Origin: an uncultured Spirochaetota bacterium
GTDB taxonomy: Bacteria > Spirochaetota > B62-G9 > CAZFGQ01
Assembly (NCBI GenBank): GCA_964518675.1
Contig: CAZFGQ010000004.1
Span: 3,631-67,630, forward strand
DNA: 64,000 nucleotides
Direction of reading: 5' to 3'
Every line of letters begins with the position of its first letter. Within the stretch, counting starts at the first letter, position 1. The notes under the pieces were generated by a model. That model saw nothing but the letters and a program-made list of their open reading frames with translations. It searched no databases and had not been told where the DNA came from. Shown piece after piece: positions 44,562 to 63,834 of this stretch. A program made the translations under genes and the position numbers.

Positions 44562-45485
44562 CTAAAGTGCATTTAAATCGGATCTCGTATAATAGTGTTT
44601 GAGCAATATGCCTTCCCCAGTAATATACTTCTTTTTTTCCCCATTGATCAAAATACTGACGGTTTTGACTTCATCAAATTCGAAGCACGTGAGAAGTATC
44701 TGTTTAAGTTGAATCTCGATTGCTTTTCTTCCAAGATAGTTATTCTCAAAATTTTCATTAAAATTAAGTGTGAGATGATTATTTTTTAGGGAAGCTGAGA
44801 TTAATTTAGTCCCCTGAGGAATAAATGTTTTAAGCCCTCTTTTTCTTTCTGCTTCTCCAGGACCTTTCAATAGTAGCTGTATGGTTCTTGTGATTGGTGA
44901 ATCTATATATTTGACAGTTTTTTTAATACCGGCAAGAGTCATCTCTCCCGTGGTAGGGTCGACTGTGACATAGTAGATGGTGGAGGTTCGAGTGTTAACT
45001 GCTTTGGATTCTGCTTTTGTTTTTCTCGTGGTTGTTTTTTTACTTTCTACCTTTTTGGCAGTGTCTAACCTTTCTGGTGTTTTTTGTGTTTCCAAACGCC
45101 TTTCTGAACTGGCTGAGGCTGTTTCTTTTTCCTCATTGGTCTTTTCTTCTTTTTTTATCTCCTCTTTTTGTTCAATTTTCTTTTCTTCGATTATTTGTTT
45201 CTCAGGAATTACTTTCTCAGATTTTTCTTCTTTTGTTTCCGGTTTGATTAACGTAATTTCTTCTTTTTTATCTTTTTCCTGAACTTCGTCCTCACTCTTT
45301 GTTTCTTCTTTGACGATGACTTTCAGCTTTTGCTCACCTTTTATAACTGAGACTAATGAATTGATTGTCTCTTTAAACGAACCTTTACCTCTATAGAGGA
45401 ATATTACTGCTATTATAAGCAGTATAAATATCCAGAAGAGACAACCTGTTCTTCTTATTTTTCTGGATTTGCCTCGCCTTGCCAT
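44562..45485 (-). CDS. GerMN-domain protein with N-terminal TM anchor and a K/E-rich low-complexity linker
   Basis: N-terminal TM (CLFWIFILLIIAVIFL). A 150-aa K/E/T-rich linker. The C-terminal region (IDSPITRTIQLLLKGPGEAERKRGLKTFIPQGTKLISASLKNNHLTLNFNENFE...VSILINGE) matches GerMN (sporulation/germination) domains. Confidence 0.65.
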   Translation of the reverse strand: MARRGKSRKIRRTGCLFWIFILLIIAVIFLYRGKGSFKETINSLVSVIKGEQKLKVIVKEETKSEDEVQEKDKKEEITLIKPETKEEKSEKVIPEKQIIEEKKIEQKEEIKKEEKTNEEKETASASSERRLETQKTPERLDTAKKVESKKTTTRKTKAESKAVNTRTSTIYYVTVDPTTGEMTLAGIKKTVKYIDSPITRTIQLLLKGPGEAERKRGLKTFIPQGTKLISASLKNNHLTLNFNENFENNYLGRKAIEIQLKQILLTCFEFDEVKTVSILINGEKKKYITGEGILLKHYYTRSDLNAL

Positions 45486-45565: not shown

Positions 45566-45991
45566 ATGAAGCGGATAAAGTTATTGGTAGTTTTGATTCA
45601 GGTATTGTTCCTCCTTTCATGTTCAAAGGAGCCGGAAAAACTTATATTAAGTATAAATGGTCGTTACCTTGAAGTGGAGGTCGCACGTACTGAGAAGGAG
45701 AGAGAGAAGGGCCTGATGAATCGTAAGTCTCTTGGCTGGAATGAAGGGATGCTCTTTATTTTTGATGATGATCAATACCTCTCTTTCTGGATGAAAAATA
45801 CTAGCATTCCGCTTTCGATCGCTTTTCTGGATAAAAATGGTATTGTGACCGATATATACAGTATGAAGCCTTTTTCGCTAGAACCTGTTGTATCTTCGCG
45901 TAAATGTAGATATGCTATTGAGGTCAATGATGGTTTTTTTGAAGAATGTGGACTAAAAATTGGAGACAGAATTGAGATTAACATCCAGTAG
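45566..45991 (+). CDS. DUF192-family lipoprotein
   Basis: Lipobox (LFLLSC). DUF192 pattern: EVARTEKEREKGLMNRKSLGWNEGMLFIFDDDQYLSFWMKNTSIPLSIAFLDKNGIV...YAIEVNDG. Confidence 0.75.
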   Translation: MKRIKLLVVLIQVLFLLSCSKEPEKLILSINGRYLEVEVARTEKEREKGLMNRKSLGWNEGMLFIFDDDQYLSFWMKNTSIPLSIAFLDKNGIVTDIYSMKPFSLEPVVSSRKCRYAIEVNDGFFEECGLKIGDRIEINIQ

Positions 45992-47030
45992 GTACTTTGG
46001 GATATTAATTAAATTATTTTTCTTTCTCTTTATACTTTACAGTCCCGCCAGGATGCTACTGGCGGAGGATAAAATACTGATTTACTATTTTAAGAATATC
46101 ACTGGGGATGATAGATACAACGATCTTGAATATAAAATCTCTGTCTGTCTGTATAGAGAGCTCAGGGCAAGGATTGGAAAAAAAGGGGTTTATCTCATTA
46201 GACCCGATACTTTTGAAAAATATTCAATTGGCAGGGATGAATATTTTAATGAGAATTTCCTCATAAACCTGTTTAGCAGGGAGAAAATTGATAAGGTTTT
46301 ATTCGGTTATTTTTTTCTACTTGACGGTAGGATTGAAATGAGAGGTAGGCTCCTCTCTGTAGATAGTGGGGTTATAATTGATATAACGGAGGCGCAGAAA
46401 GAACTGTACGAGGCTATTAGAAAAGTTGAGGGGATCGTGAAGGAGTTACAGGGTAGATGTGAACTTGATAAAAAAACAAAATATTTTTCGCCTGGTAAGA
46501 AAGCCAGAAAAGTGGCCATAAAAGAGGAAAATGCGAAAACAGGTTTGCTGGTTTTGTCAGGTGTTATTTTCCCAGTTTTTGAGTGGGGGAAATATTATGA
46601 TCCGGGAATTTTTGGGAGTTTTAATTTTTACTACACGCCGAAACCAATGACATTCCCACTTGGTTTTGGGACCCAATTTTTCTACTACTATTTGGAAAAA
46701 TCGGAGGATTTGTACCTTGGCTCAAAATTAAATGGTTTGGGCGTGCAACCAATGTTGACATACATCAAGGAAAGAAGTGGCTTTTTCAGTGGTTATGGTT
46801 TTCTTTTTGGTGTTGGCGGAGGGCTGAGTATGTTATTTGTTAACGAAGCAGATTATCTCTCAATTGATCCCTCAGTTAGTGCAAGCTTTTTTCTAATAAT
46901 TTCACCTTTTAAGGGACTTAAGATGACATTAAATGCGGGTGCCTATTCAGTAATATATAAATCTTATCCTTTTACAACCTATACTTTATCTATTGGAGTT
47001 AAATCAGGAACTTTGAAGGTAAAGAAATAA
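45960..47030 (+). CDS. Hypothetical secreted / outer-membrane-like protein: N-terminal FxNxTG (CsgG/FlgO/TolB-N-like) domain plus an aromatic-rich beta-strand C-terminal half
   Basis: Signal-like N-terminus. YYFKNITGDDRYNDLEYKISVCLYRELRA resembles the FxNxTG motif of CsgG-like and TolB-N-like lipoproteins. The C-terminal half alternates aromatic residues (FGTQFFYYYLEK, GFFSGYGFLFGVGGG). Overlaps DUF192 by 32 nt. Confidence 0.55.
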   Translation: METELRLTSSRYFGILIKLFFFLFILYSPARMLLAEDKILIYYFKNITGDDRYNDLEYKISVCLYRELRARIGKKGVYLIRPDTFEKYSIGRDEYFNENFLINLFSREKIDKVLFGYFFLLDGRIEMRGRLLSVDSGVIIDITEAQKELYEAIRKVEGIVKELQGRCELDKKTKYFSPGKKARKVAIKEENAKTGLLVLSGVIFPVFEWGKYYDPGIFGSFNFYYTPKPMTFPLGFGTQFFYYYLEKSEDLYLGSKLNGLGVQPMLTYIKERSGFFSGYGFLFGVGGGLSMLFVNEADYLSIDPSVSASFFLIISPFKGLKMTLNAGAYSVIYKSYPFTTYTLSIGVKSGTLKVKK

Positions 47031-47032
47031 CC

Positions 47033-48340
47033 ATGTTTAATAATGTTAAAAAGTTTATAATCCTTTTTTTCCTGCTGTTTCCTGGTATCTGTTCGGCTGA
47101 TTTTCATGAAGTTTTTATCAACACAGAGCCAGTTGGTGCTGAGGTTAAACTGGATTATCAACCTCTTGGTAAAACCCCTGTTCGGGTTGTTCTTGAGCAG
47201 AAAAAGAAATATCTGATGGAGATAGAAGCAGAGGGATATCATCAGTTTAGCACAGAGAAGTTCCTTGGTGAAAAAAGAAGAGAGGTTCTCTTTTTTACTC
47301 TGAAACCAGAGAAGGTAAATATCGTAATCGAGCACAAAAATGAGGAATTATACATAAATGGCGTGACAGCAGGAAAAACACCTGTAATGATTACAGGTCT
47401 TCCCGATGGGTTTTATAGGATTGAATCGAATGAAAGTGGGATTCATCTATGGGTTGGAGATGGATGGGAAACAAGAAGAGAATCGCTTGTTGATTTGTTT
47501 TTCAGTTCTTCAATTCTTGGATTGTCTGTGACAGGATTTGTACTCAACGATGACAGAGACTATGAAAAAGAAATATTTTTTAAATCCTCGGCGCTGATAT
47601 TTGGAATAATCTCAGGCTATAATTTTATGAAGTTCCTCAAGTCACATTTTGAGTATCGATCACAGTTTAATGATTTCTATAATGTGGATGTAAAACCCTA
47701 TAATGTCAACGATGCGAAGAGTAATTTTGTAAAAGGGATGGAATTACTGGGCAACGGAAATTATAAAGAAGCAATACCCTATTTTAATTTAATATCTGAA
47801 CTCTATCCTGATTCTGAATACCTGCCAATTTCTATTTATGAAATAGGGTATTGTTACTACATGCTGGATGATCCTAAAGGAATTGAATATCTCAAGAGGT
47901 ATGTTGAAGAGTATCCACAGCCAGATCTTTTTCAATTAGCAGTAATGATGCTTCTGGAGTACCAGTTAAAGAGAAATCTTGTCTACGATGCTCTCGTAAC
48001 ATATCAAAAAGTTCGGCCGGTTATAATTCACGATTCGGATGGAGAAATAATTGTTTCTTACTATCGTATCCTGACGGATATATACAAACGAACGGGTAAG
48101 GTATATAACATTATAATCAGAGATATTCTGAGAGAGATAAATTATTTTTTGACCAATTATAAGGATGTACCGAAGTATCCGGATATACTCCTATTAAAGG
48201 GTAAACTTCATTATAAGTATCTTGATAAAGAGCTTGGTGAAAAAATCTTTAAGAGGATTCTTGATGAATATACTCACAGAGATGATTTAAAAAAGGAGAT
48301 CAGGGCTATCAGTGAATATGGAAAAGGTACTTTGCTTTGA
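47033..48340 (+). CDS. PEGA-domain protein with a C-terminal TPR-like region
   Basis: Signal peptide. Two PEGA-like repeats (INTEPVGAEVKLDYQPLGKTPV; LYINGVTAGKTPVMITGLPDGFYRIE). A TM segment, then a TPR-like helical C-terminus (NYKEAIPYFNLISELYPDSEY...). Confidence 0.65.
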   Translation: MFNNVKKFIILFFLLFPGICSADFHEVFINTEPVGAEVKLDYQPLGKTPVRVVLEQKKKYLMEIEAEGYHQFSTEKFLGEKRREVLFFTLKPEKVNIVIEHKNEELYINGVTAGKTPVMITGLPDGFYRIESNESGIHLWVGDGWETRRESLVDLFFSSSILGLSVTGFVLNDDRDYEKEIFFKSSALIFGIISGYNFMKFLKSHFEYRSQFNDFYNVDVKPYNVNDAKSNFVKGMELLGNGNYKEAIPYFNLISELYPDSEYLPISIYEIGYCYYMLDDPKGIEYLKRYVEEYPQPDLFQLAVMMLLEYQLKRNLVYDALVTYQKVRPVIIHDSDGEIIVSYYRILTDIYKRTGKVYNIIIRDILREINYFLTNYKDVPKYPDILLLKGKLHYKYLDKELGEKIFKRILDEYTHRDDLKKEIRAISEYGKGTLL

Positions 48341-50555
48341 ACTGAGGGGTTTTATCCTTGGGGTGGACTCCTCACAGGTAGAAAAGGTACTTGTTAATAA
48401 AAATCCCAGCAGGGAGAGCTTTACACTCGCTACAGGGGTTGAAATAAAGCCATTATGGGAATATATCCCACTTCCTGAAAGAGCAGAAAAAATATCAGAA
48501 AACATAATTTTCATTAAGGATCAGAAGGACTCTTACGGGTTTACTGTGGATAGGGTAAGGGGATATGTGAATGTAAGAGCATCTGAAAGGCAACACCAGA
48601 AAATGGAGCAGGGCCCCATAAGATACTATATAAAAATTGATGGGGATCTGATCCCGGTTCTGGATCTTGCTTTTATTACCAATAATAAAGGTTCTGTTGG
48701 AGAGGAACATATAAAAGAAATTGTTGAAATGAGCAGAGGCATTTCTCAGGATGGAGGGGAGGTTGAAGAGGAGCCTTCTCTTACTGTAAGCAAAGAGGAG
48801 GTGTTCAGAAGCATTGAAGAGGAGATAAAGAGAAGCAAGAAGGATTTTTCTGAAACGGTAATCAAAAGTGAAAGAAAAGGTTTTCTTTTTCCCGTTTTGA
48901 TAAATGCGGGAATAGTTCTTTTGTTTGGAGCTGGTCTATTATACTTCATTATGACAAACAGAGAAAGCCTATCAATGGCCTATATGGGGGGTGTTGTTAC
49001 TGGAGTTGAGGAAGAGGTTATCAAGGAGATTAAGAGGAGATCTGAGGAAGAGTTAAGTCAGCAGAGGAAAAAGCTTGAGGAAGCAAAAAGGAGACTTGAA
49101 GCTCTTCGAAGGGAAAAAGAGTTTTTCGAAAAGAATCAGGATAAAATTTTAGCAGAGAAGGAGAAAAAACTCAGGGAAGAGTATAACAGGAAACTTGAGG
49201 AAATAAGAAAGAGACTTGAAGCGAGTGGTGTTGCAAATGTTGAGGAGGCATTCCAGGCAGAGAAACAGAAGCTTTACCAGGAATACCTTGCTTCTCTTCA
49301 GGCGACCAGGAGCGAGATTGAAAAGGTAAAAAGGCAGTATGAAGAGGCACTGAAACAGAAAGAGGCCGAGATAAAAAAGGAGGTGAATATTTACTCCCGG
49401 AGATTGGCAGAGATGGAAGCCCAACTTGAGTCAGAACAGAGTAAATTAAGGAAGGTTGAAGAACAGTTCAAGAGTGTTGCAGCAAAGCAAAAAGAATACG
49501 AAGCTTTTAGGAACCAGCTAAATCTGATTTATGATAGAGCTCTTAAATATCTGGAAAAAGGAAATACTTCTAGAGGACTTGAAACACTGCGAAATGCAAT
49601 AAGCATCCTCAATGAGGCAGAAAAAAGAGGGCTCACAGATCCCTTTGGCCTCAGTGTTGAAAAGGAACTTATAAACAGGATGATATATATTACTGAAAGA
49701 GAAAGGGCCAAGGTTGATGTAAACGAACTTGCCCGCAAAACATTGCTTTCAGCGAATACACTGGAAGCTGCCGGTAAAGAGAGGGAGGCTCTTTATAAAT
49801 ATTTTACCGTTTACACAATAGCAAAAGACCAGAATTTGCGTGAGAGAGCTTATAAAAAGGCCCAGGATATAATGAATAGAATATATGCTGAAATCTCTTC
49901 AGAAGAAAAAGCCAGATTGGAGTCGGAAGCAAGCGACCTGATCAAAAAGGCCGGAAAGATGATCGATAGTGGAGATTATGATAGGGCTGTAGAGCTCCTG
50001 TATGCTTCTCTATCGACACTAACTGACCCTGCTATTGCAAAGGATGTCTTGAATAAAATAGCCTATATAAAAGAAATGAAGCTGGAGGAAGAGCAACAGA
50101 GAGCAGTGCAGGAACGGGAGAAAAATGCCAGTGTTTTGATGGCAAAGGCAGATGAGCTTTATAAAAAGGGATTTTTTAGCGAAGCAATTGATTACTACAG
50201 AGAGATTGCCACAAACTTCAGCGGTACGAGGAGTGCCGATATTGCTATTGATAGACTTATAAGTATTAGCGAAAAAATGAAGGAATATAAGGTAGCATCA
50301 AGGGGAAGAATAGAGGTTACAGGTAAGGATACCTCGGTGGTTATTCAAAAGCTTGGTACCTCGCAGGTTATAATTGGTCTCGGAGGAAATGATGGTGTGA
50401 AATCCGGAGACACACTTCAGGTCTACCGTAAGATCGGGTCCGAGTTTCAATTTGTATGTACTTTAAGGGTTTTTGAGGTGTATCCAACCAGCTCCAAAGC
50501 GTCTGTAACCTATTTTGAGCGGAGCGTTAAGGTAGGGGATATAGTTACTTATTAG
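48312..50555 (+). CDS. CheW-like-domain protein with a single TM helix, ~450 aa of coiled coil/TPR-like repeats, and a small C-terminal beta domain
   Basis: The N-terminal 130 aa match the CheW fold (LCFELRGFILGVDSSQVEKVL...IIFIKDQKDSYGFTVDRVRGYVNV...IPVLDLAFI). TM helix (GFLFPVLINAGIVLLFGAGLLYFI). Long EK-rich heptad region. The C-terminus is GDTLQVYRKIGSEFQFVCTLRVFEVYPTSSKASVTYFERSVKVGDIV. Overlaps the PEGA gene by 29 nt. Confidence 0.7.
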   Translation: MNMEKVLCFELRGFILGVDSSQVEKVLVNKNPSRESFTLATGVEIKPLWEYIPLPERAEKISENIIFIKDQKDSYGFTVDRVRGYVNVRASERQHQKMEQGPIRYYIKIDGDLIPVLDLAFITNNKGSVGEEHIKEIVEMSRGISQDGGEVEEEPSLTVSKEEVFRSIEEEIKRSKKDFSETVIKSERKGFLFPVLINAGIVLLFGAGLLYFIMTNRESLSMAYMGGVVTGVEEEVIKEIKRRSEEELSQQRKKLEEAKRRLEALRREKEFFEKNQDKILAEKEKKLREEYNRKLEEIRKRLEASGVANVEEAFQAEKQKLYQEYLASLQATRSEIEKVKRQYEEALKQKEAEIKKEVNIYSRRLAEMEAQLESEQSKLRKVEEQFKSVAAKQKEYEAFRNQLNLIYDRALKYLEKGNTSRGLETLRNAISILNEAEKRGLTDPFGLSVEKELINRMIYITERERAKVDVNELARKTLLSANTLEAAGKEREALYKYFTVYTIAKDQNLRERAYKKAQDIMNRIYAEISSEEKARLESEASDLIKKAGKMIDSGDYDRAVELLYASLSTLTDPAIAKDVLNKIAYIKEMKLEEEQQRAVQEREKNASVLMAKADELYKKGFFSEAIDYYREIATNFSGTRSADIAIDRLISISEKMKEYKVASRGRIEVTGKDTSVVIQKLGTSQVIIGLGGNDGVKSGDTLQVYRKIGSEFQFVCTLRVFEVYPTSSKASVTYFERSVKVGDIVTY

Positions 50556-51175: not shown

Positions 51176-52831
51176 CTATTTTATGGCTGCTGTGTACACT
51201 CCATCCCAGTCTTCTGGTGGAGGATTCTTTATAAGTTCGGTACATCTATCTATGTACATAGATGTGGGTATATCCTCTGGGAGCATATCTCTGCACTCCC
51301 TGAATGCTTCCAGTGCTTCTTTAAATTTTCTATTTCTGTAGAGTTCGATTGCACTGTTAAATATGTTAAAAGCTTTTTCCATTTCTCCTGAGTCTGGAAT
51401 GAATGGCTGATAGATTTTTACTGGTTTCAACTTGCCCATAACTCGAACTGAGTCGAGTTCTCTTACCTTTATTTGCCCATTCATGGCTCTGTGTGTATGT
51501 TCGCTGATTATTATTGGAACCCTGTACAGTTTTGTGAGCCCTTCCAGCCTCGAGGCAAGGTTCACAGTATCACCAACACAGGTATAATCTAGTTTTTGTG
51601 TTGAACCAATATTACCTACAACAACCTCTCCAGTATTGATTCCAATTCCTATTCTGAATGGAGGTCTCCCGAGTTTGGTCTGCCTTTTATTGAAAGATTT
51701 TAATGACTGAAGCATTTCAAGGCCGGTAATAGTAGCCTGAAAGGGATCATCGTCGTGTTTTGCTGGGGCACCAAATATGGCCATTATGGCATCACCTATG
51801 AACTTATCTATTGTGCCTTTGTGTTGAATAATGATTCCGACCATAAGGTTGAAGTATGTGTTCAGTGAGGTTACAAGCTCCTCAGCAGAAAGGCTCTCAG
51901 AAATTGTTGTGAAGCTTCTGATGTCGGAAAACAGAATAGTGACAATCTGTTTTTTCCCAATCAACAGGTCTTTACCGCTGGATTTCATTACCTCGTCAAT
52001 TACCTCTGCCGGGACATATTTCTGGAATATCTGTCTGATCCTCTCTTCATTATTTTTAGCCAGTACTGATTTATAAGCATATTCCTTGATTTTATTATAC
52101 GCAATCTCAAGATCTTCAATCATATAGTTAAACCAGGTTGCCAGGTATCCGATTTCATCATCGTATTCAACATTTACTCTTTTTGAAAGGTCGTTTGTTG
52201 TGATGATTTCTTTCATAGTAGATACTACATTGCCAATTGGGTCTGTTATCTTTTTAATCGAGAAGAGGATGAATATTACAGCAATTACCAGGGTGATACC
52301 CATAATGAAGGCCACCTGCTTTTTAATGCTATTTGCATTTTCATAGAATACTTCTTCTTTTTCACTCAGCAGGAGATACCAGTCCCATGGCTCAAAATAC
52401 ATGAAGTACCCTATTCGTGAGCCATCGATAAAAGTAAAGTTAACCAGGCCGTTTATTTTACCCTTTATATTTTTAAAAAAACTATTATCTGATATATTCG
52501 TAATTTCGAGTTTTGGGAATATGATTTCACCGGAAGAATTAAAGGCCATGAAGTATCCGGTTTCTGATAAGCCTATGGTTTTTGCATATTCTTCAGCTGA
52601 CTTTTTTGCGAGCTCGCGATAATTTTCTTCTTCGGCAAGACCGGTTTCAACGAGGATATCTTCCTGCCTACGGCAGTATTTGTACATCTCTGCAACTTTA
52701 TAGCTCAAAAACTCTCTTGTAACCTTGGTTATGCCCTGCCTTGCTGAGAAGTAGGAAGTAAAGCCAACGAGGATTAAGGGTAAAATGAGAATGGGAAGGA
52801 TTACTACAAGGACTTTTGTTCTTATTTTCAT
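51176..52831 (-). CDS. Sensor adenylate/guanylate cyclase (periplasmic sensor, HAMP, class III cyclase)
   Basis: Two TM helices flank a ~150-aa periplasmic region. HAMP-like linker. Cyclase core TILFSDIRSFTTISESL...IDKFIGDAIMAIFGAP...GINTGEVVVGNIG...VGDTVNLASRLE. C-terminal helical (TPR-like) tail. Confidence 0.88.
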   Translation of the reverse strand: MKIRTKVLVVILPILILPLILVGFTSYFSARQGITKVTREFLSYKVAEMYKYCRRQEDILVETGLAEEENYRELAKKSAEEYAKTIGLSETGYFMAFNSSGEIIFPKLEITNISDNSFFKNIKGKINGLVNFTFIDGSRIGYFMYFEPWDWYLLLSEKEEVFYENANSIKKQVAFIMGITLVIAVIFILFSIKKITDPIGNVVSTMKEIITTNDLSKRVNVEYDDEIGYLATWFNYMIEDLEIAYNKIKEYAYKSVLAKNNEERIRQIFQKYVPAEVIDEVMKSSGKDLLIGKKQIVTILFSDIRSFTTISESLSAEELVTSLNTYFNLMVGIIIQHKGTIDKFIGDAIMAIFGAPAKHDDDPFQATITGLEMLQSLKSFNKRQTKLGRPPFRIGIGINTGEVVVGNIGSTQKLDYTCVGDTVNLASRLEGLTKLYRVPIIISEHTHRAMNGQIKVRELDSVRVMGKLKPVKIYQPFIPDSGEMEKAFNIFNSAIELYRNRKFKEALEAFRECRDMLPEDIPTSMYIDRCTELIKNPPPEDWDGVYTAAIK

Positions 52832-52931
52832 TATTTATCCTTATTTATTTCCTTATTTATCCTCTATGGCCCTGTCCTTTCAGCGGGAAGCACAAATCAG
52901 CTCTAAATTCTAAATATTACTTCTAGGAGTT

Positions 52932-53165
52932 TTACTCTTCGAGACCCTCAAATAGTTCGAGCACATCCTCTCCATTTTTACCCTTTCTTAAAATTTCTAT
53001 TTTTTTCTCTATCTTTGCAAGTTTTTTTGCGCAGATTCTCGTAAGCTTTGTACCTTCTTCGAATAGGCTGAGTGCTTTCTCAATTTCAATTTCACCGCTC
53101 TCCAGCTCCCGTACTATTTCCTCCAGCCTCTTGATAGCCTGTTCAAAACTAATAGAGGTATCCAT
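52932..53165 (-). CDS. xseB: Exodeoxyribonuclease VII small subunit
   Basis: 77 aa helical. FEQAIKRLEEIVRELESGEIEIEKALSLFEEGTKLTRICAKKL is the XseB pattern. Start overlaps the xseA stop. Confidence 0.85.
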   Translation of the reverse strand: MDTSISFEQAIKRLEEIVRELESGEIEIEKALSLFEEGTKLTRICAKKLAKIEKKIEILRKGKNGEDVLELFEGLEE

Positions 53166-54406
53166 TACCCTTTAAGCCTCCTGATTTCTTTATCGACCCT
53201 TGTAACTCTGCTTTCAAATTCTCCATCTGCCAGTAGTGTTAACACTAAATCACCGGGGGAAATGAATCTTATGCTCTTTATGGGGGTTTTTTTGGGTGGT
53301 TTTGTGACAATTGAGTATCCTCTTGCAAGGGTTGAAAGTGGACTGAGAGATTCGAGCTTTGCTACCCCCTGTTTAAATCTATTTTTATAATTGTTTATGA
53401 TATTTTCAAAAGAGTTATCAAGAGCCTTGGAGATATCATCGAATATCATTGTTTTGTTGACAATAATGTTTTTAATTCGCCTTTCAAGGATTTCTTCTGA
53501 ATAATGGGACAGAGTATCCTTTTTTTGATTTACAATTGATGTCATTCGGTTCAGCATTCTTTGAACGAGGTCTTTAAAGTGTGTTGCAAGTTCGCTTTTA
53601 TTTTTGACAACGAGTTCTGCAGCAGCCGATGGAGTGGGTGCACGAAGGTCAGCCACAAGGTCACTTATTGTTGTGTCAATTTCATGTCCAACGGCGCTTA
53701 TAATTGGTATTTCTGAAGAGTATATTGCTCTTGCCACTTTTTCTTCGTTAAAGGCCCATAAATCTTCTATGGATCCTCCACCTCTGGCGAGAATAAGTAC
53801 ATCCACCTCTTTTCTCTCATTTGCCGTATTAATAGCCGAGACTATTTCCTCTGCAGCTCCTTCTCCCTGAACCAGGGTCGGGTAAATAATAATGTGTACT
53901 CCACGATATCTTCTATTAATCACATTCAGTATGTCCCTTATTGCAGCTCCTGTGGGAGATGTTATTACACCTATTTTTTCAGGGAATGGAGGAATTGGCA
54001 TTTTGTGTTCAGGTGAAAATAAGCCTTCCTTTTCAAGTTTTTCTTTTAGTTGCTGGAAAGCGATCTGAAGGGCGCCTATGCCTTCCGGTTCAATATAGTC
54101 TACAATAACCTGATACTCACCTCTCTTTTCGTATATGTCGAGCTCACCATGTACGATTACCTTCATTCCATCTTCCAGGTCGAATTTTATCTCATTGTGA
54201 AATTTCTTGAAAAAAACTGCCTTTATTACTGAGTATTCATCTTTCAGGGTAAAATATATGTGTCCGGAATGAGCTGTTCTGCAGTTTGAAAGCTCGCCCC
54301 TTATCCAAATGTCGTAAAAGTTGTCTACTATAAGGAGCTTAATTTCCTTTGTTATTTCAGAAACGGTGTATATTTTTTTCTTGCTGAGAAGTGATTCAAG
54401 ATCCAT
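53165..54406 (-). CDS. xseA: Exodeoxyribonuclease VII large subunit
   Basis: 413 aa. N-terminal OB fold (YTVSEITKEIKLLIVDNFYDIWIRGELSNCRTAHSGHIYFTLKD) and an ExoVII catalytic region (GVITSPTGAAIRDIL...ILARGGGSIEDLWAFNEE). Confidence 0.9.
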   Translation of the reverse strand: MDLESLLSKKKIYTVSEITKEIKLLIVDNFYDIWIRGELSNCRTAHSGHIYFTLKDEYSVIKAVFFKKFHNEIKFDLEDGMKVIVHGELDIYEKRGEYQVIVDYIEPEGIGALQIAFQQLKEKLEKEGLFSPEHKMPIPPFPEKIGVITSPTGAAIRDILNVINRRYRGVHIIIYPTLVQGEGAAEEIVSAINTANERKEVDVLILARGGGSIEDLWAFNEEKVARAIYSSEIPIISAVGHEIDTTISDLVADLRAPTPSAAAELVVKNKSELATHFKDLVQRMLNRMTSIVNQKKDTLSHYSEEILERRIKNIIVNKTMIFDDISKALDNSFENIINNYKNRFKQGVAKLESLSPLSTLARGYSIVTKPPKKTPIKSIRFISPGDLVLTLLADGEFESRVTRVDKEIRRLKG

Positions 54407-54485
54407 ATCTAAAGAGTAAATAATAAGCTCTCTCTGGTCAATTATTAAGTTTGACGCAGTAGATTTTTTGGATTAGTATAAGCAC

Positions 54486-56018
54486 ATGAAAAATTGCTGT
54501 ATTGTTAATCTGCTGCTTCCGGGAGAATGGTGGGTTCGAGAAATCTCGGGAGTAAGCCCGGTAAAAGTTATTCTGGAAAAGAGCAAGAAATTATTCAGGG
54601 CTGATGAAATACTGTGCCTTATTGATGATAAAATACCGGATGATTTGCTTTCCATTGTGCGTTCTTGCATTTCGGGAGAAAATATTGTCTCTGTCGAGAA
54701 TAGAAAATTTTCGACAGTGATCAAAAAACTGTTCAATGAATTGAGTAAGGTTAAAAATTGTGAAAATCTTGTATTTGTCCATGGAGATTCCCCTCTTATA
54801 GACCTGGACCTTATTTCTCGAATGCTTGCAATACATAGTGATCAACTTGCCGAATACACCCATGGCGAGGGATATCCAGCCGGGTTCCTTCCGGAAATCC
54901 TCAGGATAGAGATTATTCCGAGATTATTAAAACTTTCTGAGAGCTTTGATCCGGATTTTGACAGATCAGCTATTTTTAAGGTTATTTCAAAGGAGGTAAA
55001 TTCGTTTGATATAGAGACCCTTTTTGCTGATGAGGATCTAAAACTTAGAAGAATTGAGGCTATAACATCCAGCTGGAGAGAACGTTTGATTGTGGAAAAT
55101 GTTATTAGATCTACGGGGAAGAAGGAGCTTGATATCTCTTATAAAGAGTTTTGTGAGCTCATCAGGAGAGAACCTTTGATTTTAAGACCCACTCCCACGT
55201 ACTGTCAGGTAGAGATTACGAGTCTTCGAAATGATGAATGTATATATTACCCCATTGAATTTATGGAGAGACGACCGGGCCAGATGAAACTTGACGATTA
55301 TCTTAGAATTCTTGATAAGCTTGTCACGATAAATCCAGAGATGTATATAGAGATATCCTATCTCGGTGAGCCGTTACTGCATCCAAACTTTCAGACAATT
55401 ATTAAGAAAACTCTCGAAAATCCTTGGGTGAAGTTGATTGTTCTTACAAATGGCCTGCTCTGGACTCCGGGGATGTCTGAGGATATTGTTAAAAATTATG
55501 GTGAGAATGATAGATTGTTTATAATATTTGAACTTGATGCTGTAGAAGAGAAAACCTATGCAAAAATAAGGCGGGGAGACCTCTTTAAGGTTGAAAGGAA
55601 CATCAGGTATCTTCATTCTCTTGGTTTTAAGAATCTCTTTGTTCAGTTTACAAGAATTGATCTAAATGAGGATGAGATGATCAGGTTTTACCAGAGCTGG
55701 GAAAAGGAGGGCGTAAAGCCTGTAATTCAGAAGTTTAACAGTTTTTCGGGATTATTACCGGGGTTCTCGGATTATGATATTACCCCACTTGAGCGCTGGC
55801 CATGTTATCACCTGGAAAGGGAGATGGTTATCTTTTACAATGGAGATGTCCCGAAATGCAAACAGGACATCAATTTGCGGTATCCTCTGGGAAATCTTAT
55901 TACCGACTCTGTTGCAGATGTATGGAAAAATGGGAATAAATATTATCTTGAACATGTAGCAGAAAAGTACGATGATCTGTGTTCTGAGTGTGACGAGTAC
56001 TTTACCTTTAATTTTTAG
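54486..56018 (+). CDS. Fusion protein: N-terminal nucleotidyltransferase-like region plus C-terminal radical-SAM-like/SPASM-like domain with a degenerate Cys motif
   Basis: N-terminal region has LVFVHGDSPLIDLDLISRM (DxP-type NTP-transferase motif) but no glycine-rich loop. C-terminal region has GEPLL (ISYLGEPLLHP) and TNG (LIVLTNGLLW) radical-SAM motifs. The cluster loop reads PTPTYCQVEITSLRNDECIYY, only two Cys instead of CxxxCxxC. Cys-rich tail: CYHLE...PKCKQD...CSECDEY. Confidence 0.6.
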   Translation: MKNCCIVNLLLPGEWWVREISGVSPVKVILEKSKKLFRADEILCLIDDKIPDDLLSIVRSCISGENIVSVENRKFSTVIKKLFNELSKVKNCENLVFVHGDSPLIDLDLISRMLAIHSDQLAEYTHGEGYPAGFLPEILRIEIIPRLLKLSESFDPDFDRSAIFKVISKEVNSFDIETLFADEDLKLRRIEAITSSWRERLIVENVIRSTGKKELDISYKEFCELIRREPLILRPTPTYCQVEITSLRNDECIYYPIEFMERRPGQMKLDDYLRILDKLVTINPEMYIEISYLGEPLLHPNFQTIIKKTLENPWVKLIVLTNGLLWTPGMSEDIVKNYGENDRLFIIFELDAVEEKTYAKIRRGDLFKVERNIRYLHSLGFKNLFVQFTRIDLNEDEMIRFYQSWEKEGVKPVIQKFNSFSGLLPGFSDYDITPLERWPCYHLEREMVIFYNGDVPKCKQDINLRYPLGNLITDSVADVWKNGNKYYLEHVAEKYDDLCSECDEYFTFNF

Positions 56019-56178
56019 AGCTTCCGATGTAGGTTGCTGTGCCCTTTATTTGTCCCGGTACAATCTGACGGTGTGAAGTCATCGGTTATTGGTAATAAGA
56101 TGTTTTTTGTAATATGATTTGGGTCTATCTTATTATGGTTTCAGGAGCTGTGTTTAAAATAATAATTTTTAAAATATT

Positions 56179-56868
56179 GTGATGGGCAGATCTATAGTTA
56201 TTCTACAGGCAAGATTAGCCTCTAAAAGACTACCTCTAAAATTGTTACTTCCACTAAGTGGTTATTCCATTCTGGAACATATCATTATGAGGATTAAAAA
56301 GGCAAGTAGGCCGGATGGATTCGTGATTGCGACGACTGAAGATACTGCAAAGGCCATAAGGCACATTGCGGACTTCTATGATGTCAGAATTATTACAGGT
56401 GATGAAAAAGATGTTCTTGGGCGTTTTGTCAAGGCTGCAATCGATGCACAGGCAGAGCATATTGTGAGAACAACAGGTGATAATCCTCTGGTTTCAATAA
56501 AATATATAGATAGAACCCTTGAACTTCACCTTGAATCCGGTGCCGATCTCACTACCTATCCCCTCCTTCCTCTGGGCACAGGAGTTGAGGTTATAAAAAG
56601 AGAAGCACTTATAAAGGCACACAGGGAGGCTGAGGAGGATTTTGAAAGAGAGCATATTACTCAGTACATCTACAGGAATGAGAATGATTTTAAAATAATA
56701 AGGGGGGTTCCGGATTCTCCCTATCTTTTTCCTGAACTTAGGCTTACCGTTGATAATGAGATGGACTATCGATTTTTAAAGCATATCTACTCCAATCTTT
56801 TTAAAGGTAGTGTGCTGAATCTTAAAGAGGTTATCTCATTTGTTCTTAAAACCGAGAATTATTCATAA
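56179..56868 (+). CDS. Acylneuraminate/CMP-sugar cytidylyltransferase family protein (SpsF/PseF-like)
   Basis: SIVILQARLASKRLPLKLLLPLSGYSILEHIIMRI (N-terminal nucleotide loop) and VRTTGDNPLV (DxP motif), as in SpsF/NeuA/PseF-type enzymes. Confidence 0.8.
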   Translation: MMGRSIVILQARLASKRLPLKLLLPLSGYSILEHIIMRIKKASRPDGFVIATTEDTAKAIRHIADFYDVRIITGDEKDVLGRFVKAAIDAQAEHIVRTTGDNPLVSIKYIDRTLELHLESGADLTTYPLLPLGTGVEVIKREALIKAHREAEEDFEREHITQYIYRNENDFKIIRGVPDSPYLFPELRLTVDNEMDYRFLKHIYSNLFKGSVLNLKEVISFVLKTENYS

Positions 56869-56965
56869 GGGATATGGTATTTTCTCCGGACATGTCAGAT
56901 TAATTGAAGAGTTACTTTTGCTCTATTTAAAGAGTATTTTATTGGTAAAGATTTTCGGATGGTAA

Positions 56966-58750
56966 GTGTTTGATATGAATAAACTCAATGTTCTTTTTTA
57001 TACAGTTTGCGGCGGAAAGTTTGGAATGGGGCATTTTATCAGATGTCTGGCTCTTGCCCTCAAAGGAAATAATTTTATTGAAGGCTTCTTTTATCTTAGG
57101 AAATCAGGTGGTTCTCGGAAAAAACTTGCCGGGGGAAGGATTCCGCTTCCGAATAACTCAAGATATATTAATGAAATTGATGATTTGGAAGATGTTAATC
57201 TGGTGGTTTCAGATGTAAGGAATACATCCCCAAAGGAGATGAGAAAACTGACGAAAATTGCTCCTGTTATTTCGTTTGATGACTGGGGAGCTGGCATGGA
57301 CTATGCTCATGTTACCATTTATCCTCTTCCTACACTCCGTGAGATAAGCGGAAATCTTTTTGGACTGGAATACCTGATTCTTAACCCTGCGGTTACAGCT
57401 ACTAGTCCTTTATCAATTAAGGATAAGAAAGGTGTGCTTGTATGTTTTGGCGGTTCAGATCCATATAATCTGAGCCCAGTTGTAGCCAGGGCCCTCAATC
57501 AAATTGGTATAAGGCCTTTAGTCGTTGCTGGACCTTTTTCTGAGATTAACAAGGATGAGTTCGATGGTCAGCTTGTAAGAGATTTTTCAATTCTGCCTGA
57601 GTTGTTGAACAAGTCCAGGTTAGTAATTACCAGCTTTGGAATAACTTTATTTGAAGCTATGTACCTTCAGACTCCAGTTATATTGTTCAACAACACTGCA
57701 TATCATAACAAACTTGCAGAAAAGTTTGATGTTATTAGCCTTGGTTATAGAAACAGAAAAATCATTCCAAAATTACCAAAATTACTTGAGAGAACCATTG
57801 GGGGCGAAGATGTTCTTATTGAAAGAGCGGAGATGAACAAAAAACTCATTGACGGGAAAGCTGCTGAGAGAATACTGGAGCTGATGAAGAAAACGGCGTT
57901 TAGCGGAAGGAGAAGGTGTCTTTTTAACCATCAGAAATACTATTCGGTAAAAAGAGGAACGAAGAATACATTATTTAGATGTCGGAAATGTGGGGATCTT
58001 TTTAATTTTTTGTTTGATTCAGAGGGAGATAATTATGACTCTCCTTCCTACTTTCTTTCAAATTACAGAGCACAGTATGGAAAGACGTACATCGCCGATA
58101 GAGAAAACATAGAGAGGATGGCTGGGTTGAGACTTGAAAGGATAGAAAATATTTTGGGCAGACATGGAAAATTGCTGGATGTCGGCAGTGCCCTTGGTTT
58201 CCTTGTGAAAGTTGCGAGAGATAGAGGATGGGATGCTGAAGGAGTTGAAATTTCAGCCTATGCAGTTGAGTGGTCAAGGCGGAGACTTGGAATTAATGTC
58301 CACAGAGGCTCTTTTTTCGATGTGGAGCTGGATAAAGATGGTTACGATGTTATAACATTTTTTTATGTTCTTGAACATTTTAAGGAACTTGATAGGGTAA
58401 TTGAAAAAGTAAAGAGTGTTCTGAAAAGTGGTGGAATTTTAGCTATAGCAATGCCCAACCGTGGCGGTATAAGCTTCAGGTTTAATCGCAGGGATTATCT
58501 CAGGGATCATCCAAATGATCATTATATTGATACTACACACCGTAATCTGAGAAAATACCTGAGGAATTATGGATTTGGAAAGTTCTATACTATCTCTACT
58601 GGAATCCATCCTGAGAGATTTTTTTCTATTTTGAGATTGAATAAGCTGGGATTGAATGAAAAAAGAGAACTGTTGTACCGAATATATTGTACAGCAGCGA
58701 AGAAATTAAATCTTGGGGATACATTTGAGCTCTATGCAGTTAAAAATTAA
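56966..58750 (+). CDS. Fusion of a PseG/SpsG-like UDP-sugar hydrolase domain with a class-I SAM-dependent methyltransferase domain
   Basis: N-terminal ~310 aa: NVLFYTVCGGKFGMGHFIRCLALA... (PseG-like G-x-GH-x-x-R) and a GT-B C-lobe. Linker has a CRKCGDLF zinc-ribbon-like element. C-terminal ~220 aa: LLDVGSALGFLV...DVITFFYVLEHF...GGILAIAMPN (Rossmann methyltransferase motifs I-III). Confidence 0.7.
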   Translation: MFDMNKLNVLFYTVCGGKFGMGHFIRCLALALKGNNFIEGFFYLRKSGGSRKKLAGGRIPLPNNSRYINEIDDLEDVNLVVSDVRNTSPKEMRKLTKIAPVISFDDWGAGMDYAHVTIYPLPTLREISGNLFGLEYLILNPAVTATSPLSIKDKKGVLVCFGGSDPYNLSPVVARALNQIGIRPLVVAGPFSEINKDEFDGQLVRDFSILPELLNKSRLVITSFGITLFEAMYLQTPVILFNNTAYHNKLAEKFDVISLGYRNRKIIPKLPKLLERTIGGEDVLIERAEMNKKLIDGKAAERILELMKKTAFSGRRRCLFNHQKYYSVKRGTKNTLFRCRKCGDLFNFLFDSEGDNYDSPSYFLSNYRAQYGKTYIADRENIERMAGLRLERIENILGRHGKLLDVGSALGFLVKVARDRGWDAEGVEISAYAVEWSRRRLGINVHRGSFFDVELDKDGYDVITFFYVLEHFKELDRVIEKVKSVLKSGGILAIAMPNRGGISFRFNRRDYLRDHPNDHYIDTTHRNLRKYLRNYGFGKFYTISTGIHPERFFSILRLNKLGLNEKRELLYRIYCTAAKKLNLGDTFELYAVKN

Positions 58751-59927
58751 AGTTCTTATTAAAATACTTCTAATAATAGCAGTACTTATTACAGGATATT
58801 TGTCGTCTGTCCAGGATGCTTTTTCTGCTGGGACACCTTCAGAAACAGGTGCAGCTAAAACCGGGTATGTGAATATTATCCAGGTTATTGATTATTTTAA
58901 TCTTGATTATGAATTTGATGAATTGGCAGGTGTTTTAGTTTTAAAGAAAGGTACTCAGACTTTAATCCTTCATGCTGGTAGCAAAGCATATTATTACGGT
59001 GACAGAACCTACTTTTCCAGCTTACCTGTACGTATTGAAACTGGCAGGATCTTTGTGAGCAGTGAAATTGTTGATTTCATTATTAAAAGGTTTGTTAGGA
59101 AGAGAGTAAAATGGGAGGTTGTAAATGGCAATTTTGTTGTTAGTGGAAGGACTCTGAGAGAAAAAGAAGTGGTGTCAGGGAGAAAGGGTACAGAATTAAC
59201 CACTCCCAGAAGGAGAATAGATATAATAATTATTGATCCAGGCCATGGAGGTAAAGATCCGGGTGGTATTGGCTATGGCGGAATCAAAGAAAAAGACATT
59301 GTTCTCGATATTTCCAAGTTATTGCAGAAAGAGCTGAGGAGGAGCTCCAATAAAAAGGTAATAATGACAAGAAAAGAGGATGTTTTTGTTTCACTTGAAG
59401 AAAGAAGCAAAATTGCCAATGGTAATAACAATGGGGGAAATAGTATTTTTGTCAGTATTCATGCAAATGTGGCTTTGGACAAGTCATCTAAAGGATTTGA
59501 GAGCTACTATTTATCTCTCCATCCGTTTGGAGAAAATGCAAGGGATGTTTCAGAGATTGAAAATGCTGTTATTACATATGAGGAGAAACCGTATGCTGAT
59601 TATCTCAAGGAAGTTTTGAATCGAGTTGTGGATGTTGAATATAGAAAAGAGAGCATGAAGCTGGCCAGCTATATAAATCAGGGTATTGCTCAGATGGTAA
59701 ACCAGGCAATGCCAAATAGGGGTGTGAAAGGTGCATTCTTTTATGTTTTGAAAGAATCCAAAATGGTAGCTGTACTGGTTGAAATTGGGTTTATAACAAA
59801 TAAAAAGGAGGCAGAATTGCTTAAAAGCAAGGAGTATCAAACAAAGCTTGCAAAGGGAATAGCTTCTGGTATAATAAGTTTTATAGTTGAATTTGAAAGA
59901 ACAAATGGTTTTACCGAAGGGTATTAA
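58713..59927 (+). CDS. N-acetylmuramoyl-L-alanine amidase (Amidase_3, AmiC-like) with an N-terminal AMIN-like domain
   Basis: Signal/TM. Amidase_3 catalytic region IIIDPGHGGKDPGGIG...VSIHANV...GFESYY...RGVKGAFFYVLKESKMVAVLVEIGFITNKKE. Likely true start at the ATG at 58734. Confidence 0.85.
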   Translation: MGIHLSSMQLKIKVLIKILLIIAVLITGYLSSVQDAFSAGTPSETGAAKTGYVNIIQVIDYFNLDYEFDELAGVLVLKKGTQTLILHAGSKAYYYGDRTYFSSLPVRIETGRIFVSSEIVDFIIKRFVRKRVKWEVVNGNFVVSGRTLREKEVVSGRKGTELTTPRRRIDIIIIDPGHGGKDPGGIGYGGIKEKDIVLDISKLLQKELRRSSNKKVIMTRKEDVFVSLEERSKIANGNNNGGNSIFVSIHANVALDKSSKGFESYYLSLHPFGENARDVSEIENAVITYEEKPYADYLKEVLNRVVDVEYRKESMKLASYINQGIAQMVNQAMPNRGVKGAFFYVLKESKMVAVLVEIGFITNKKEAELLKSKEYQTKLAKGIASGIISFIVEFERTNGFTEGY

Positions 59928-59928
59928 T

Positions 59929-60420
59929 ATGAAATATCGTAGTGCTACGTCTGGATTTAATGCAAAATTATATGTTTTCATGATTTTTTCATTTGTTATT
60001 ACTCTGATATTTCTTATATATATCGAAAATAAAAAATATGTTCGAATTAATATTTATCTTCCCCATATTAACTCAGCAGAGTTATCAAAAGAGGTCCGTT
60101 TTATTCCTAAAAGTGGTTCGAGAATTGAGAAGATCAGATGGATAATGGGCGAACTTATCTCGGGACCTCTCAATTCTGAACATCTCAGGGTCTTTAATCC
60201 TGATACCAAAATAAGGGATATATTTATTGAAAAGGGAGTTATGTACATAAATTTTGACTGGATGATAGTTGAGGCCTTTCATAAGAATTATTCCCAGGTA
60301 GTCAGCTCAATAAAGAAAACAATAGCCGATAATTTTTCTGGAATAAGAGAGGTGAGGCTTCTTATTGATGGGGTTGAACCCATTCTGTACAAAGGACCTA
60401 TTGTATTGAAGCTCAGGTGA
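59929..60420 (+). CDS. GerMN-domain protein downstream of the amidase
   Basis: Start ATG overlaps the amidase stop (TAATATG). N-terminal TM (LYVFMIFSFVITLIFLIYI). GerMN-like region (EVRFIPKSGSRIEKIRWIMGELISGP...IREVRLLIDGVEPI). The track ORF starts 42 nt earlier at 59887. Confidence 0.65.
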   Translation: MKYRSATSGFNAKLYVFMIFSFVITLIFLIYIENKKYVRINIYLPHINSAELSKEVRFIPKSGSRIEKIRWIMGELISGPLNSEHLRVFNPDTKIRDIFIEKGVMYINFDWMIVEAFHKNYSQVVSSIKKTIADNFSGIREVRLLIDGVEPILYKGPIVLKLR

Positions 60421-60822
60421 TTTGTCACCAAGGAGCTTTATAATTTTACCAAGGATATATTAGTATAGATAGGCCGCAGGTTATTTCTCTCCTATTTTTT
60501 TAATAAGGCGAACTTCGAGTTTTCAATTTGAAATGTGAATTATTGGATACAAATTGATACAGGATGGAGAAATCAATAAATATTTTTTAAGTTGTTCGTA
60601 ATTCGCCGGCACTGCAACATTTTTAATTCTATTATGCATTCAGATTTCTATATTTCAGAAATTTCCACATTCATTTTAATATTTATTAAAGATACGCTAA
60701 TGGATTTCCGATAAGAAAAGAGAACCATATTTATAATCTCAGCCCTGAAAATTTTTTTGACAGGGCTAGATTAATGAATATACTTATAATTAATAAAGAT
60801 TTGAGCGAAAGGAGCCTGAACA

Positions 60823-61767
60823 ATGAAAAAGGTCTTATTAGTGATTGTTTCTCTAATAATTCTACCTCTATCAGGGGTTGTATTTGCGCAGGAACAAAAG
60901 ATCCAGGGAGGACCACAGGTTTTAATTGATTTTTCAAATCTTAGCGATACTGAGATTGACTTTTCTAAATTTCCGGGTGGTATCGCCGAGGGAATAACCG
61001 AATTGAAGGTGGATCTCAGTATTGAAAACTGGATGGTTAAACTCGCCCCCTCTTCTGCATCCATAAAAAATAGGGTCCTTTCATACTGTAAACCGGTTAA
61101 GAGCAGAAAGATGAATGCTGATGTACTCGGAGTAAGGGTACATTTTCCGACAGCACCATTTAATTCCTGGGCAAAGATTCTGCCTCCGTTTGAAATCCCA
61201 TTTTATGAGGACAAAGAAGGGGAGGAAGGTCAGGGAACAAAGTTCATCAATAAAGGTGTTCTGAGAAATGTGGGTACGATCAAATCCATCTCTGTAAGGG
61301 TAACCGGAAGAAACTTTCCACATGGGCTTTCCATCTCTCTAAAGGATTCGAGAGATACTGTCAGGGAGATGTTCCTCGGTTATCTTGATTTTGATGGTTG
61401 GAGAACCCTTACATGGAAGAATCCTAATTACATCTCTGATGTGAAGCAGAGAGATCTCCGGAAGATCCCTCTCTATCCACAATTAGAGCCATCAGTTAAG
61501 TTTGATTCATTCACGATTTACAGGCATGGCAGCCAGATAGGTGGAGATTTTGTGACATACATAAAGGATGTTCAGATGGTTTATGACCTTGCCATCCTCG
61601 AAACGGAAAGAGATATTGATGATGAGGCTGTATGGGGAATATTAAAGGCCAGAAAGGAAGCCAAGAGAGCGGCTGAGATCAGAAGGCTGGGTATGTTACA
61701 GTTACTGAGACAGCAGGAACTCATTAAGATGCAGCATGCAGTAACAGAGGCGCCTCCAGCTCAGTAA
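60823..61767 (+). CDS. flaA: Flagellar filament outer-layer (sheath) protein FlaA homologue
   Basis: Signal peptide (LSGVVFAQEQ). From memory the sequence aligns along its length with spirochaete FlaA: VLGVRVHFPTAPFNSWAKILPPFEIPFYE; GVLRNVGTIKSISVRVTGRNFPHGLSISLKD; FLGYLDFDGWRTLTWKNPNYISDVKQRDLR; GGDFVTYIKDVQMVYD. Confidence 0.7.
   Translation: MKKVLLVIVSLIILPLSGVVFAQEQKIQGGPQVLIDFSNLSDTEIDFSKFPGGIAEGITELKVDLSIENWMVKLAPSSASIKNRVLSYCKPVKSRKMNADVLGVRVHFPTAPFNSWAKILPPFEIPFYEDKEGEEGQGTKFINKGVLRNVGTIKSISVRVTGRNFPHGLSISLKDSRDTVREMFLGYLDFDGWRTLTWKNPNYISDVKQRDLRKIPLYPQLEPSVKFDSFTIYRHGSQIGGDFVTYIKDVQMVYDLAILETERDIDDEAVWGILKARKEAKRAAEIRRLGMLQLLRQQELIKMQHAVTEAPPAQ

Positions 61768-62196: not shown

Positions 62197-63834
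<1,638 letters not shown>

Follow-up and report, generated by a model that had tools for sequence, protein, structure and literature searches.

Radical S-adenosylmethionine (SAM) enzymes are defined by a three-cysteine cluster. What, then, is maintained in a protein that keeps their barrel and an auxiliary-cluster tail and has lost those cysteines? The question is raised by a gene in a 64,000-nucleotide stretch of contig CAZFGQ010000004.1, from an uncultured Spirochaetota bacterium; we refer to the whole stretch as the window. The gene occupies positions 54,486–56,018 of the forward strand, and its 510-residue product is called the window protein below. A model that saw the letters alone (the sequence-only reading) had described a radical-SAM-like domain with a degenerate cluster loop, and the strings on which it relied, namely PTPTYCQVEITSLRNDECIYYP (residues 235–256), YLGEPLL (residues 292–298), TNG (residues 321–323) and four C-terminal cysteine strings, are all present in this open reading frame (ORF). 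Alignments indicate that the cysteine triad has been lost repeatedly and is missing from about half of the family to which the protein belongs.

The product is a full-length, bona fide member of TIGR04321 (‘spiro-SPASM protein’), a named but uncharacterised family of Spirochaetota: residues 21–510 match positions 20–510 of the 510-position NCBIfam model with 409 bits, against a cutoff of 250. It consists of a cytidylyltransferase fold, a radical-SAM barrel and a four-cysteine Twitch-type tail. The homology to radical-SAM enzymes proposed by the sequence-only reading is borne out by two Pfam models, each scoring above its gathering score. PF04055 (Radical_SAM) matches residues 238–397 (55,197–55,676, forward strand), the partial TIM-barrel core of the superfamily, with 44.9 bits (E = 1.8e-11, gathering score 29.5), and PF13186 (SPASM) matches residues 440–503 with 33 bits (gathering score 21.5). 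The AlphaFold model, calculated from a 25-sequence input, has a mean predicted local distance difference test (pLDDT) score of 89.7 and a predicted template modelling (pTM) score of 0.86. For its C-terminal half, Foldseek ranked BtrN first, with a template modelling (TM) score of 0.69 normalised to the target, and SuiB, SkfB and anSME are among the other structures that resemble this half; for the N-terminal half, the match is to a cytidylyltransferase of Leptospira (6oew), with a TM-score of 0.75.

By sequence and by Foldseek alike, the closest solved relative is BtrN (PDB 4m7t/4m7s), a Twitch radical-SAM dehydrogenase that acts on a sugar-like substrate in butirosin biosynthesis; the sequence search reached no other solved structure. 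The two proteins are about 18–21% identical, and BtrN lacks an N-terminal nucleotidyltransferase-fold domain. Their alignment places EITSLRNDECIYYP of the window protein opposite EVNSQCNRTCWYCP of BtrN. The radical-SAM cluster of BtrN is ligated by C16, C20 and C23 (PMC9012708); these residues align with R248 (55,227–55,229), C252 (55,239–55,241) and Y255 (55,248–55,250) of the window protein, so that the middle cysteine alone survives. The degenerate loop spans E243–I257 (55,212–55,256, forward strand), as delimited by the BtrN alignment, the family alignments and the loop column frequencies, and does not contain the three cysteines of CxxxCxxC that hold the SAM-binding [4Fe–4S] cluster. The aromatic residue Y254 and P256 are kept. 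The absence of the motif and the tyrosine at the third cysteine position had both been read correctly from the letters. The claim of two cysteines in the loop holds for C252 only: C240 lies opposite Ile8 in strand β1 of BtrN and for that reason is not a cluster-loop residue. The spacing had also been miscounted, as 11 residues rather than 12 separate C240 from C252. The two-cysteine arrangement is not conserved in orthologues. Only the window protein and one relative on an independent metagenome contig (L081:3001–4533; 97% identity) have C240, other clade members having alanine, isoleucine or valine, and C252 is missing from about a third of the window’s clade, several close relatives among them.

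To place this loop in the family, we scanned one genome per GTDB species, which yielded 584 confirmed relatives; locus counts below refer to the best 80. When 1.84 billion representatives were searched exhaustively with a profile, 760 matched at E ≤ 1e-30. Among 105 relatives (80 genome loci and 25 database proteins), 61 carry the full CxxxCxxC and 44 an incomplete version, with the Twitch cysteines kept in 104. The best 148 representatives at 50% identity divide into 69 with the motif and 79 with an incomplete one; in 61, all three motif positions lack a cysteine (a class not separated in the sample of 105), and 143 of the 148 keep the Twitch cysteines. Cluster-less forms predominate in the Treponema group, where only 11 of 119 proteins retain the motif, 108 are incomplete, 85 have no triad cysteine at all and 118 keep the Twitch cysteines; the cultured T. 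zioleckii is included. The sole exception in this group, Treponema parvum P0320, shows D/C/S/Y at the four Twitch cysteine columns in a quick alignment, which may reflect local misalignment or genuine loss of the auxiliary site. The family spans Spirochaetota: 77 of the 80 best loci are titled Spirochaetota, one belongs to a spirochaete endosymbiont and two are labelled ‘uncultured bacterium’. The window itself, which encodes the periplasmic-flagellum protein FlaA, accords with a Spirochaetota origin. A profile search of a word-indexed protein database matched almost exclusively the uncultured clade of the window protein. Pfam scans of unusually long family members gave no informative fusions.

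In a neighbour-joining tree, the window protein falls inside a 39-sequence clade in which the first and third motif cysteines (C1 and C3) are absent throughout; alignments confirmed their absence in 34 of the 34 clade members tested. Tree and alignments together indicate that the common ancestor of this clade lost C1 and C3 and that the middle cysteine is a relic, which was lost again in several sub-lineages. Separate losses elsewhere on the tree comprise P0021; P0023/P0025 (C1 only); L033/L035; L029/L026; and L070, L080, L072 and L022. This rough tree suggests at least six independent triad losses, and possibly about ten. In a 2015 survey, T. pallidum TPASS_0285 appears only as a SPASM iron–sulfur protein and TPASS_0289 as a SAM methyltransferase, entries that would agree with the same operon, and perhaps an equivalent triad loss, in the agent of syphilis.

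The triad is lost without a comparable change elsewhere in the protein. For 69 representatives that carry the motif and 80 that do not (the window protein counted in), we found mean pairwise identities of 0.34 versus 0.34 for the N-terminal domain, 0.33 versus 0.32 for the barrel and 0.45 versus 0.44 for the Twitch domain. Among positions that are strict in motif-bearing members, the outright losses in the window’s clade are the cysteines at columns 248 and 255; the few other positions that differ mostly show conservative replacements such as D128E and F126Y. Residues D101, P103, N172, R189, E320, T321, G323, D351, Y358, Q387, R390, Q415, K416, R437, H442 and R445 are equally conserved with and without the motif. 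Relative to the 97%-identical protein, the ratio of non-synonymous to synonymous substitution rates (dN/dS) is 0.26, from small counts. The radical-SAM/Twitch half contributes five synonymous changes and one non-synonymous change (V448L), numbers that are likewise small. The N-terminal half contributes 10 synonymous and 15 non-synonymous changes, and so 15 of the 16 amino acid changes; small as these counts are, they suggest that the N-terminal domain is the less constrained part of the protein. These comparisons show the rest of the protein to be under purifying selection, from the polar residues of the barrel and the GGE-type motif to the aromatic residue of the former cluster loop and the four cysteines of the Twitch tail. 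The clade has also acquired conserved positions of its own. The segment E370-R-N-x-R-Y375 (55,593–55,610) is 94–100% conserved in the cluster-less clade, and in motif-keeping clades the top residue at these columns reaches 20–56%. It may represent a newly constrained surface, gained after or around the loss of the cluster.

In the radical SAM superfamily, the GGE-type motif and the aromatic residue of the cluster loop contact SAM. Both are present in the window protein. The counterpart of the GGE motif is G294-E295-P296 (55,365–55,373, forward strand), part of the glycine-rich string that the sequence-only reading had listed as retained, and it is invariant in our alignment A1. Across the wider sample, the motif loosens slightly where the triad is missing (Gly from 0.99 to 0.84; Glu from 0.97 to 0.81, with Asp at 0.19). 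Y254, which precedes the third cysteine position, is a tyrosine at a frequency of 0.86–1.00 without the motif versus 0.49–0.79 with it.

The C-terminal tail (55,803–55,994, forward strand), recognised by PF13186 and the BtrN alignment, carries the strings C440-YHLE, C458-KQD and C499-SE-C502-DEY in the pattern C440-x12-G453-x4-C458 ... C499-x2-C502, and the protein ends eight residues after C502. Out of all cysteines of the window protein (residues 4, 5, 44, 61, 92, 223, 240, 252, 440, 458, 499 and 502), only C440, C458, C499 and C502 are invariant among relatives. C458, C499 and C502 align to cysteines of BtrN, whose single auxiliary cluster has four cysteine ligands (PMC9012708). The full SPASM model TIGR04085 gives only 20.9 bits, below its cutoff of 27, and covers positions 1–65 of 93. 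Four cysteines, a chain that stops at residue 510 and this partial, sub-cutoff match identify the tail as Twitch-like, with one auxiliary site, rather than as a full SPASM domain with a seven-cysteine motif and two auxiliary clusters; it fits the definition of a Twitch domain as a short C-terminal domain with a single cysteine-ligated auxiliary site (PMC9012708). The earlier description of the tail as SPASM-like thus stands as far as a retained cysteine-rich, iron–sulfur-type tail is concerned, with the correction that the domain is not a full SPASM. The SPASM maturases anSME, SuiB, SkfB and PqqE differ accordingly in having seven cysteines, and the window protein has no peptide-substrate context.

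The fusion to a nucleotidyltransferase-like region, stated in the sequence-only reading, is real. Residues 1–228 (54,486–55,169, forward strand) form a domain homologous to the SpsF/KdsB/NeuA nucleotidyltransferase fold: a profile–profile comparison by hhalign with the neighbouring CTP_transf_3 family reaches a probability of 98.3% (E = 1.7e-14, 199 columns), and BLASTP identifies the domain as a paralogue of the product of the next gene, 56,179–56,868 (E = 1e-9). Its D-x-P-L motif is retained. The phosphate-binding signature R-x-x-S-x-R-x-P-x-K is missing, the neighbour’s version, R-L-x-S-x-R-L-P-x-K, aligning to a segment without conserved arginine or lysine in any clade; this separates spiro-SPASM N-terminal domains from the SpsF, KdsB and NeuA cytidylyltransferases (PF02348; 6oew). 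PF02348 itself gave no match to the domain at E ≤ 1. The N-terminal domain therefore looks like a nucleotidyltransferase fold that has been stripped, family-wide, of part of its catalytic apparatus.

In the window, divergent xseB-xseA are followed by spiro-SPASM, a PF02348 cytidylyltransferase, a PseG-like glycosyltransferase-B (GT-B)/class I methyltransferase fusion and Amidase_3. The SpsF-like cytidylyltransferase (56,179–56,868, forward strand; PF02348, 94 bits) has an intact signature motif and lies immediately downstream of the spiro-SPASM gene in 72 of the 80 related loci. The PseG-like GT-B domain fused to a class I SAM methyltransferase (56,966–58,750, forward strand; PF13489, 69.7 bits) is syntenic in 65 of 80, and the window shows both partners in the same order as the family. 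The match of this PseG-like domain to the PseG model TIGR03590 reaches 49 bits, below the cutoff. Amidase_3, an N-acetylmuramoyl-L-alanine amidase (58,713–59,927, forward strand; PF01520, 177 bits), is syntenic in 51 of 80; its position is conserved, and it may or may not share the function of the operon. In architecture and operon neighbours nothing separates the window protein from the rest of TIGR04321, within which it belongs to the roughly one half that lacks the triad.

Most other clades have two extra operon genes. One encodes a 319-residue protein without a Pfam or NCBIfam match and lies between the spiro-SPASM and cytidylyltransferase genes; the other encodes an ATP-grasp ligase resembling L-amino-acid ligases and follows the PseG-like/methyltransferase gene. 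Marispirochaeta associata provides examples (L016:7466–8425 for the 319-residue protein and L016:10707–12464 for the ligase). Both are absent from the whole 64 kb window and from those loci of the window’s clade that have enough downstream sequence. We considered that loss of the cluster might track loss of these genes and rejected the idea. Other motif-losing lineages keep both genes, and the motif-bearing sister group of the window’s clade lacks the 319-residue gene at this spot (the ATP-grasp gene is unscorable there, the loci being short), which uncouples operon reduction from cluster loss. From this distribution, operon reduction probably preceded cluster loss.

How might a protein of this kind work? 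The reading that we favour, and to which we give about an even chance as a whole, is that the window protein is a cluster-less, ligand-binding partner in a cytidine monophosphate (CMP)-sugar operon that carries out no radical chemistry. Without a three-cysteine site, the SAM-activating [4Fe–4S] cluster would not be held and no 5'-deoxyadenosyl radical would form, leaving the protein unable to start radical chemistry. The tail would probably still hold one four-cysteine auxiliary [4Fe–4S] cluster. Laboratory precedent comes from the C16A/C20A/C23A variant of BtrN, which keeps its auxiliary cluster without the radical-SAM cluster (PMC9012708). The barrel, in turn, would probably still bind a ligand, because the GGE motif, Y254 and the polar residues are retained. 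Many independent triad losses without other decay imply that the selected function pre-exists in motif-bearing members and does not depend on the triad. Those motif-bearing relatives would use radical chemistry as an optional means of tailoring the same substrate.

On the most parsimonious view, the window protein would then serve the active cytidylyltransferase and the PseG-like/methyltransferase protein as a partner, through binding, scaffolding or regulation, a simpler account than one in which the same pocket houses a second catalytic activity. The inactive cytidylyltransferase-like domain could pair with its active paralogue next door or sense the paralogue’s product. GMPPA has a regulatory role toward its active partner GMPPB. 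GMPPA with GMPPB and eIF2B gamma/epsilon likewise set a catalytically stripped nucleotidyltransferase fold beside an active paralogue, and GMPPA/GMPPB and eIF2B chains are among the fold matches of our model; these systems have no radical-SAM or Twitch module, and the analogy is one of mechanism only. The ‘pseudo-enzyme or scaffold’ label that had been offered for the window protein is one that we, too, infer from sequence comparisons.

The pathway would build a CMP-activated sugar; a glycan of the nonulosonic-acid type, like that on spirochaete flagellins, is one candidate. The pairing of a cytidylyltransferase with a PseG-like protein recalls the PseF/PseG and SpsF/SpsG steps of nonulosonic-acid pathways, SpsG being PseG-like. 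SpsF and SpsG are the cytidylyltransferase and a further enzyme of the legionaminic acid pathway of B. subtilis (PMC7439481). Flagellins of T. denticola carry a methoxylated, acylated nonulosonic acid (PMC13439194), a structure that the methyltransferase and ATP-grasp genes would suit. We regard the assignment to a CMP-sugar or nonulosonic-acid pathway as a lead, not a result. The nearest non-spirochaete relatives point towards sugars as well: they are stand-alone radical-SAM/SPASM proteins of about 330–350 residues in Brocadiaceae and Omnitrophota, found in sugar and polysaccharide clusters with a DegT aminotransferase, a GFO/IDH oxidoreductase, a carbamoyltransferase, methyltransferases, a flippase, glycosyltransferases and B12 radical-SAM enzymes.

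Several observations weigh against this picture of a binding partner in a CMP-sugar operon. The 64 kb window yielded no core nonulosonic-acid genes (PseB/C/I or NeuB types), the neighbouring enzymes both fall far short of the PseF/PseG/KdsB equivalog cutoffs, and the consistent downstream amidase could point to peptidoglycan instead. The neighbour-joining tree is rough, and long-branch attraction may have joined the basal loss lineages L070, L080, L072 and L022. The iron–sulfur content, the ligand and the partners of family members are all inferred. Finally, the kept GGE motif, loop aromatic and barrel polar residues fit non-radical catalysis equally well.

That last point leads to the main alternative, a non-radical enzyme, which we consider somewhat unlikely. 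Here the barrel would bind the same nucleotide-sugar-like substrate, possibly together with SAM; conserved Glu, Asp, Gln, Arg, Lys, His and Tyr residues would, along with the Twitch cluster, provide the acid/base or redox chemistry. Candidate residues are at hand, since E320 (family-wide), D351, Y358, Q387, R390, Q415, K416, R437, H442 and R445 are kept regardless of the motif; the rise in Y254 conservation after the loss and the gain of E370-R-N-x-R-Y375 in the window’s clade would also be accommodated. With six or more losses, however, the second activity must already exist in the pocket of motif-bearing members, and in a BtrN-type cluster the four cysteine ligands leave no iron site open to activate a substrate (PMC9012708).

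A radical-SAM enzyme that holds its SAM cluster on non-canonical ligands, such as C240, C252 and another residue, is very improbable. C240 and C252 do lie near the loop in the window protein, and the GGE motif and loop aromatic are retained, but the private occurrence of C240 and the patchy retention of C252 leave no conserved cysteine column apart from the four Twitch cysteines, and 61 of the 148 representatives have no triad cysteine with which to begin. Of the two options first offered for this domain, cluster-less or non-canonically ligated, the comparative data favour the former. It is equally hard to believe that the radical-SAM half is a decaying relic, or that it or the whole protein is heading towards a pseudogene: the triad is gone and the GGE motif slightly relaxed in triad-less members, but in hundreds of species the ORF keeps its full length, members show the same mean pairwise identity whether or not they carry the motif, synonymous changes outnumber non-synonymous ones in the C-terminal half, and many residues are conserved solely within the clade. 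A sequencing or assembly error, misread or frameshift concealing a real CxxxCxxC has a negligible probability and is rejected, because the motif occurs in none of the gene’s six frames, the independent 97%-identical relative has an identical loop and the whole clade shares the state.

A broader conjecture can be drawn, which we hold to be unlikely as it stands. The core function of the spiro-SPASM fold would need no radical chemistry. In the cluster-less forms, the old SAM pocket, made up of the GGE motif, Y254 and the polar residues of the barrel, would still bind SAM or a cytidine nucleotide-sugar, and the Twitch cluster would be the working cofactor, a redox partner or a sensor, of a glycan pathway shared by spirochaetes at large, Treponema among them. 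If true, the family would record, as a natural series, the repeated conversion of radical-SAM proteins into non-radical-SAM ones.

Judged against enzymes that are defined by their three-cysteine cluster, the spiro-SPASM family amounts to a natural ‘cluster-knockout’ series. It indicates that an auxiliary-cluster domain and a barrel can be selected for something besides radical initiation, and it bears on the open question of what the Twitch/SPASM auxiliary cluster does. Automatic radical-SAM annotation of spiro-SPASM proteins is likely wrong for many spirochaetes. Since the operon with sugar-activating enzymes is conserved, the role of these proteins could reveal a spirochaete-specific glycoconjugate pathway. 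Public records (NCBI, JGI) already give the name ‘spiro-SPASM protein’ to close relatives that share the cluster-less loop, and this name is used by no paper in the literature that we searched. We could not find an earlier description of the scale and recurrence of triad loss with undiminished conservation elsewhere; the curators of TIGR04321 may have already noted the triad split.

Further features of the locus concern the operon genes themselves. The PseG-like/methyltransferase gene (56,966–58,750) is one ORF of 594 residues with weak TIGR03590 and Epimerase_2 matches, and the fusion is conserved across the family operons; in L070 and L080, the cytidylyltransferase and PseG-like/methyltransferase matches fall in one ORF, which suggests a larger fusion. 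The 160-nucleotide gap between the spiro-SPASM and cytidylyltransferase genes (56,019–56,178) contains only a weak terminator-like hairpin (56,069–56,084) and several weak promoter-like matches, and in some related loci the two genes abut. Rfam gave no element in 52,800–60,500. The listed TTG start of the Amidase_3 gene overlaps the end of the methyltransferase gene. Amidase_3 is followed by a small Germane (GerMN)-domain protein (59,887–60,420), and a second Germane protein is encoded 14 kb upstream (44,565–45,485, reverse strand).

Elsewhere, the scanned part of the window is core genome, with ribosomal protein S4 and rpoA identified by Pfam. ORFs 40,367–41,122, 41,126–42,748, 45,957–47,027 and 48,291–50,552 (252, 541, 357 and 754 residues) have no Pfam match at E ≤ 1e-5, and the 754-residue ORF occupies the same position in five loci of the window’s clade. 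Upstream of xseB/xseA, positions 51,176–52,831 of the reverse strand encode a 551-residue adenylate/guanylate cyclase-domain protein (Guanylate_cyc) that is syntenic only within the window’s clade; weak Cache matches were recorded for the product of its counterpart on the near-identical contig L081. Downstream of the operon lie the gene for FlaA, the periplasmic-flagellum sheath protein (60,823–61,767; PF04620, 208.8 bits), and that for GroEL (62,206–63,834). The FlaA synteny is found mainly within the window’s clade (10 loci).

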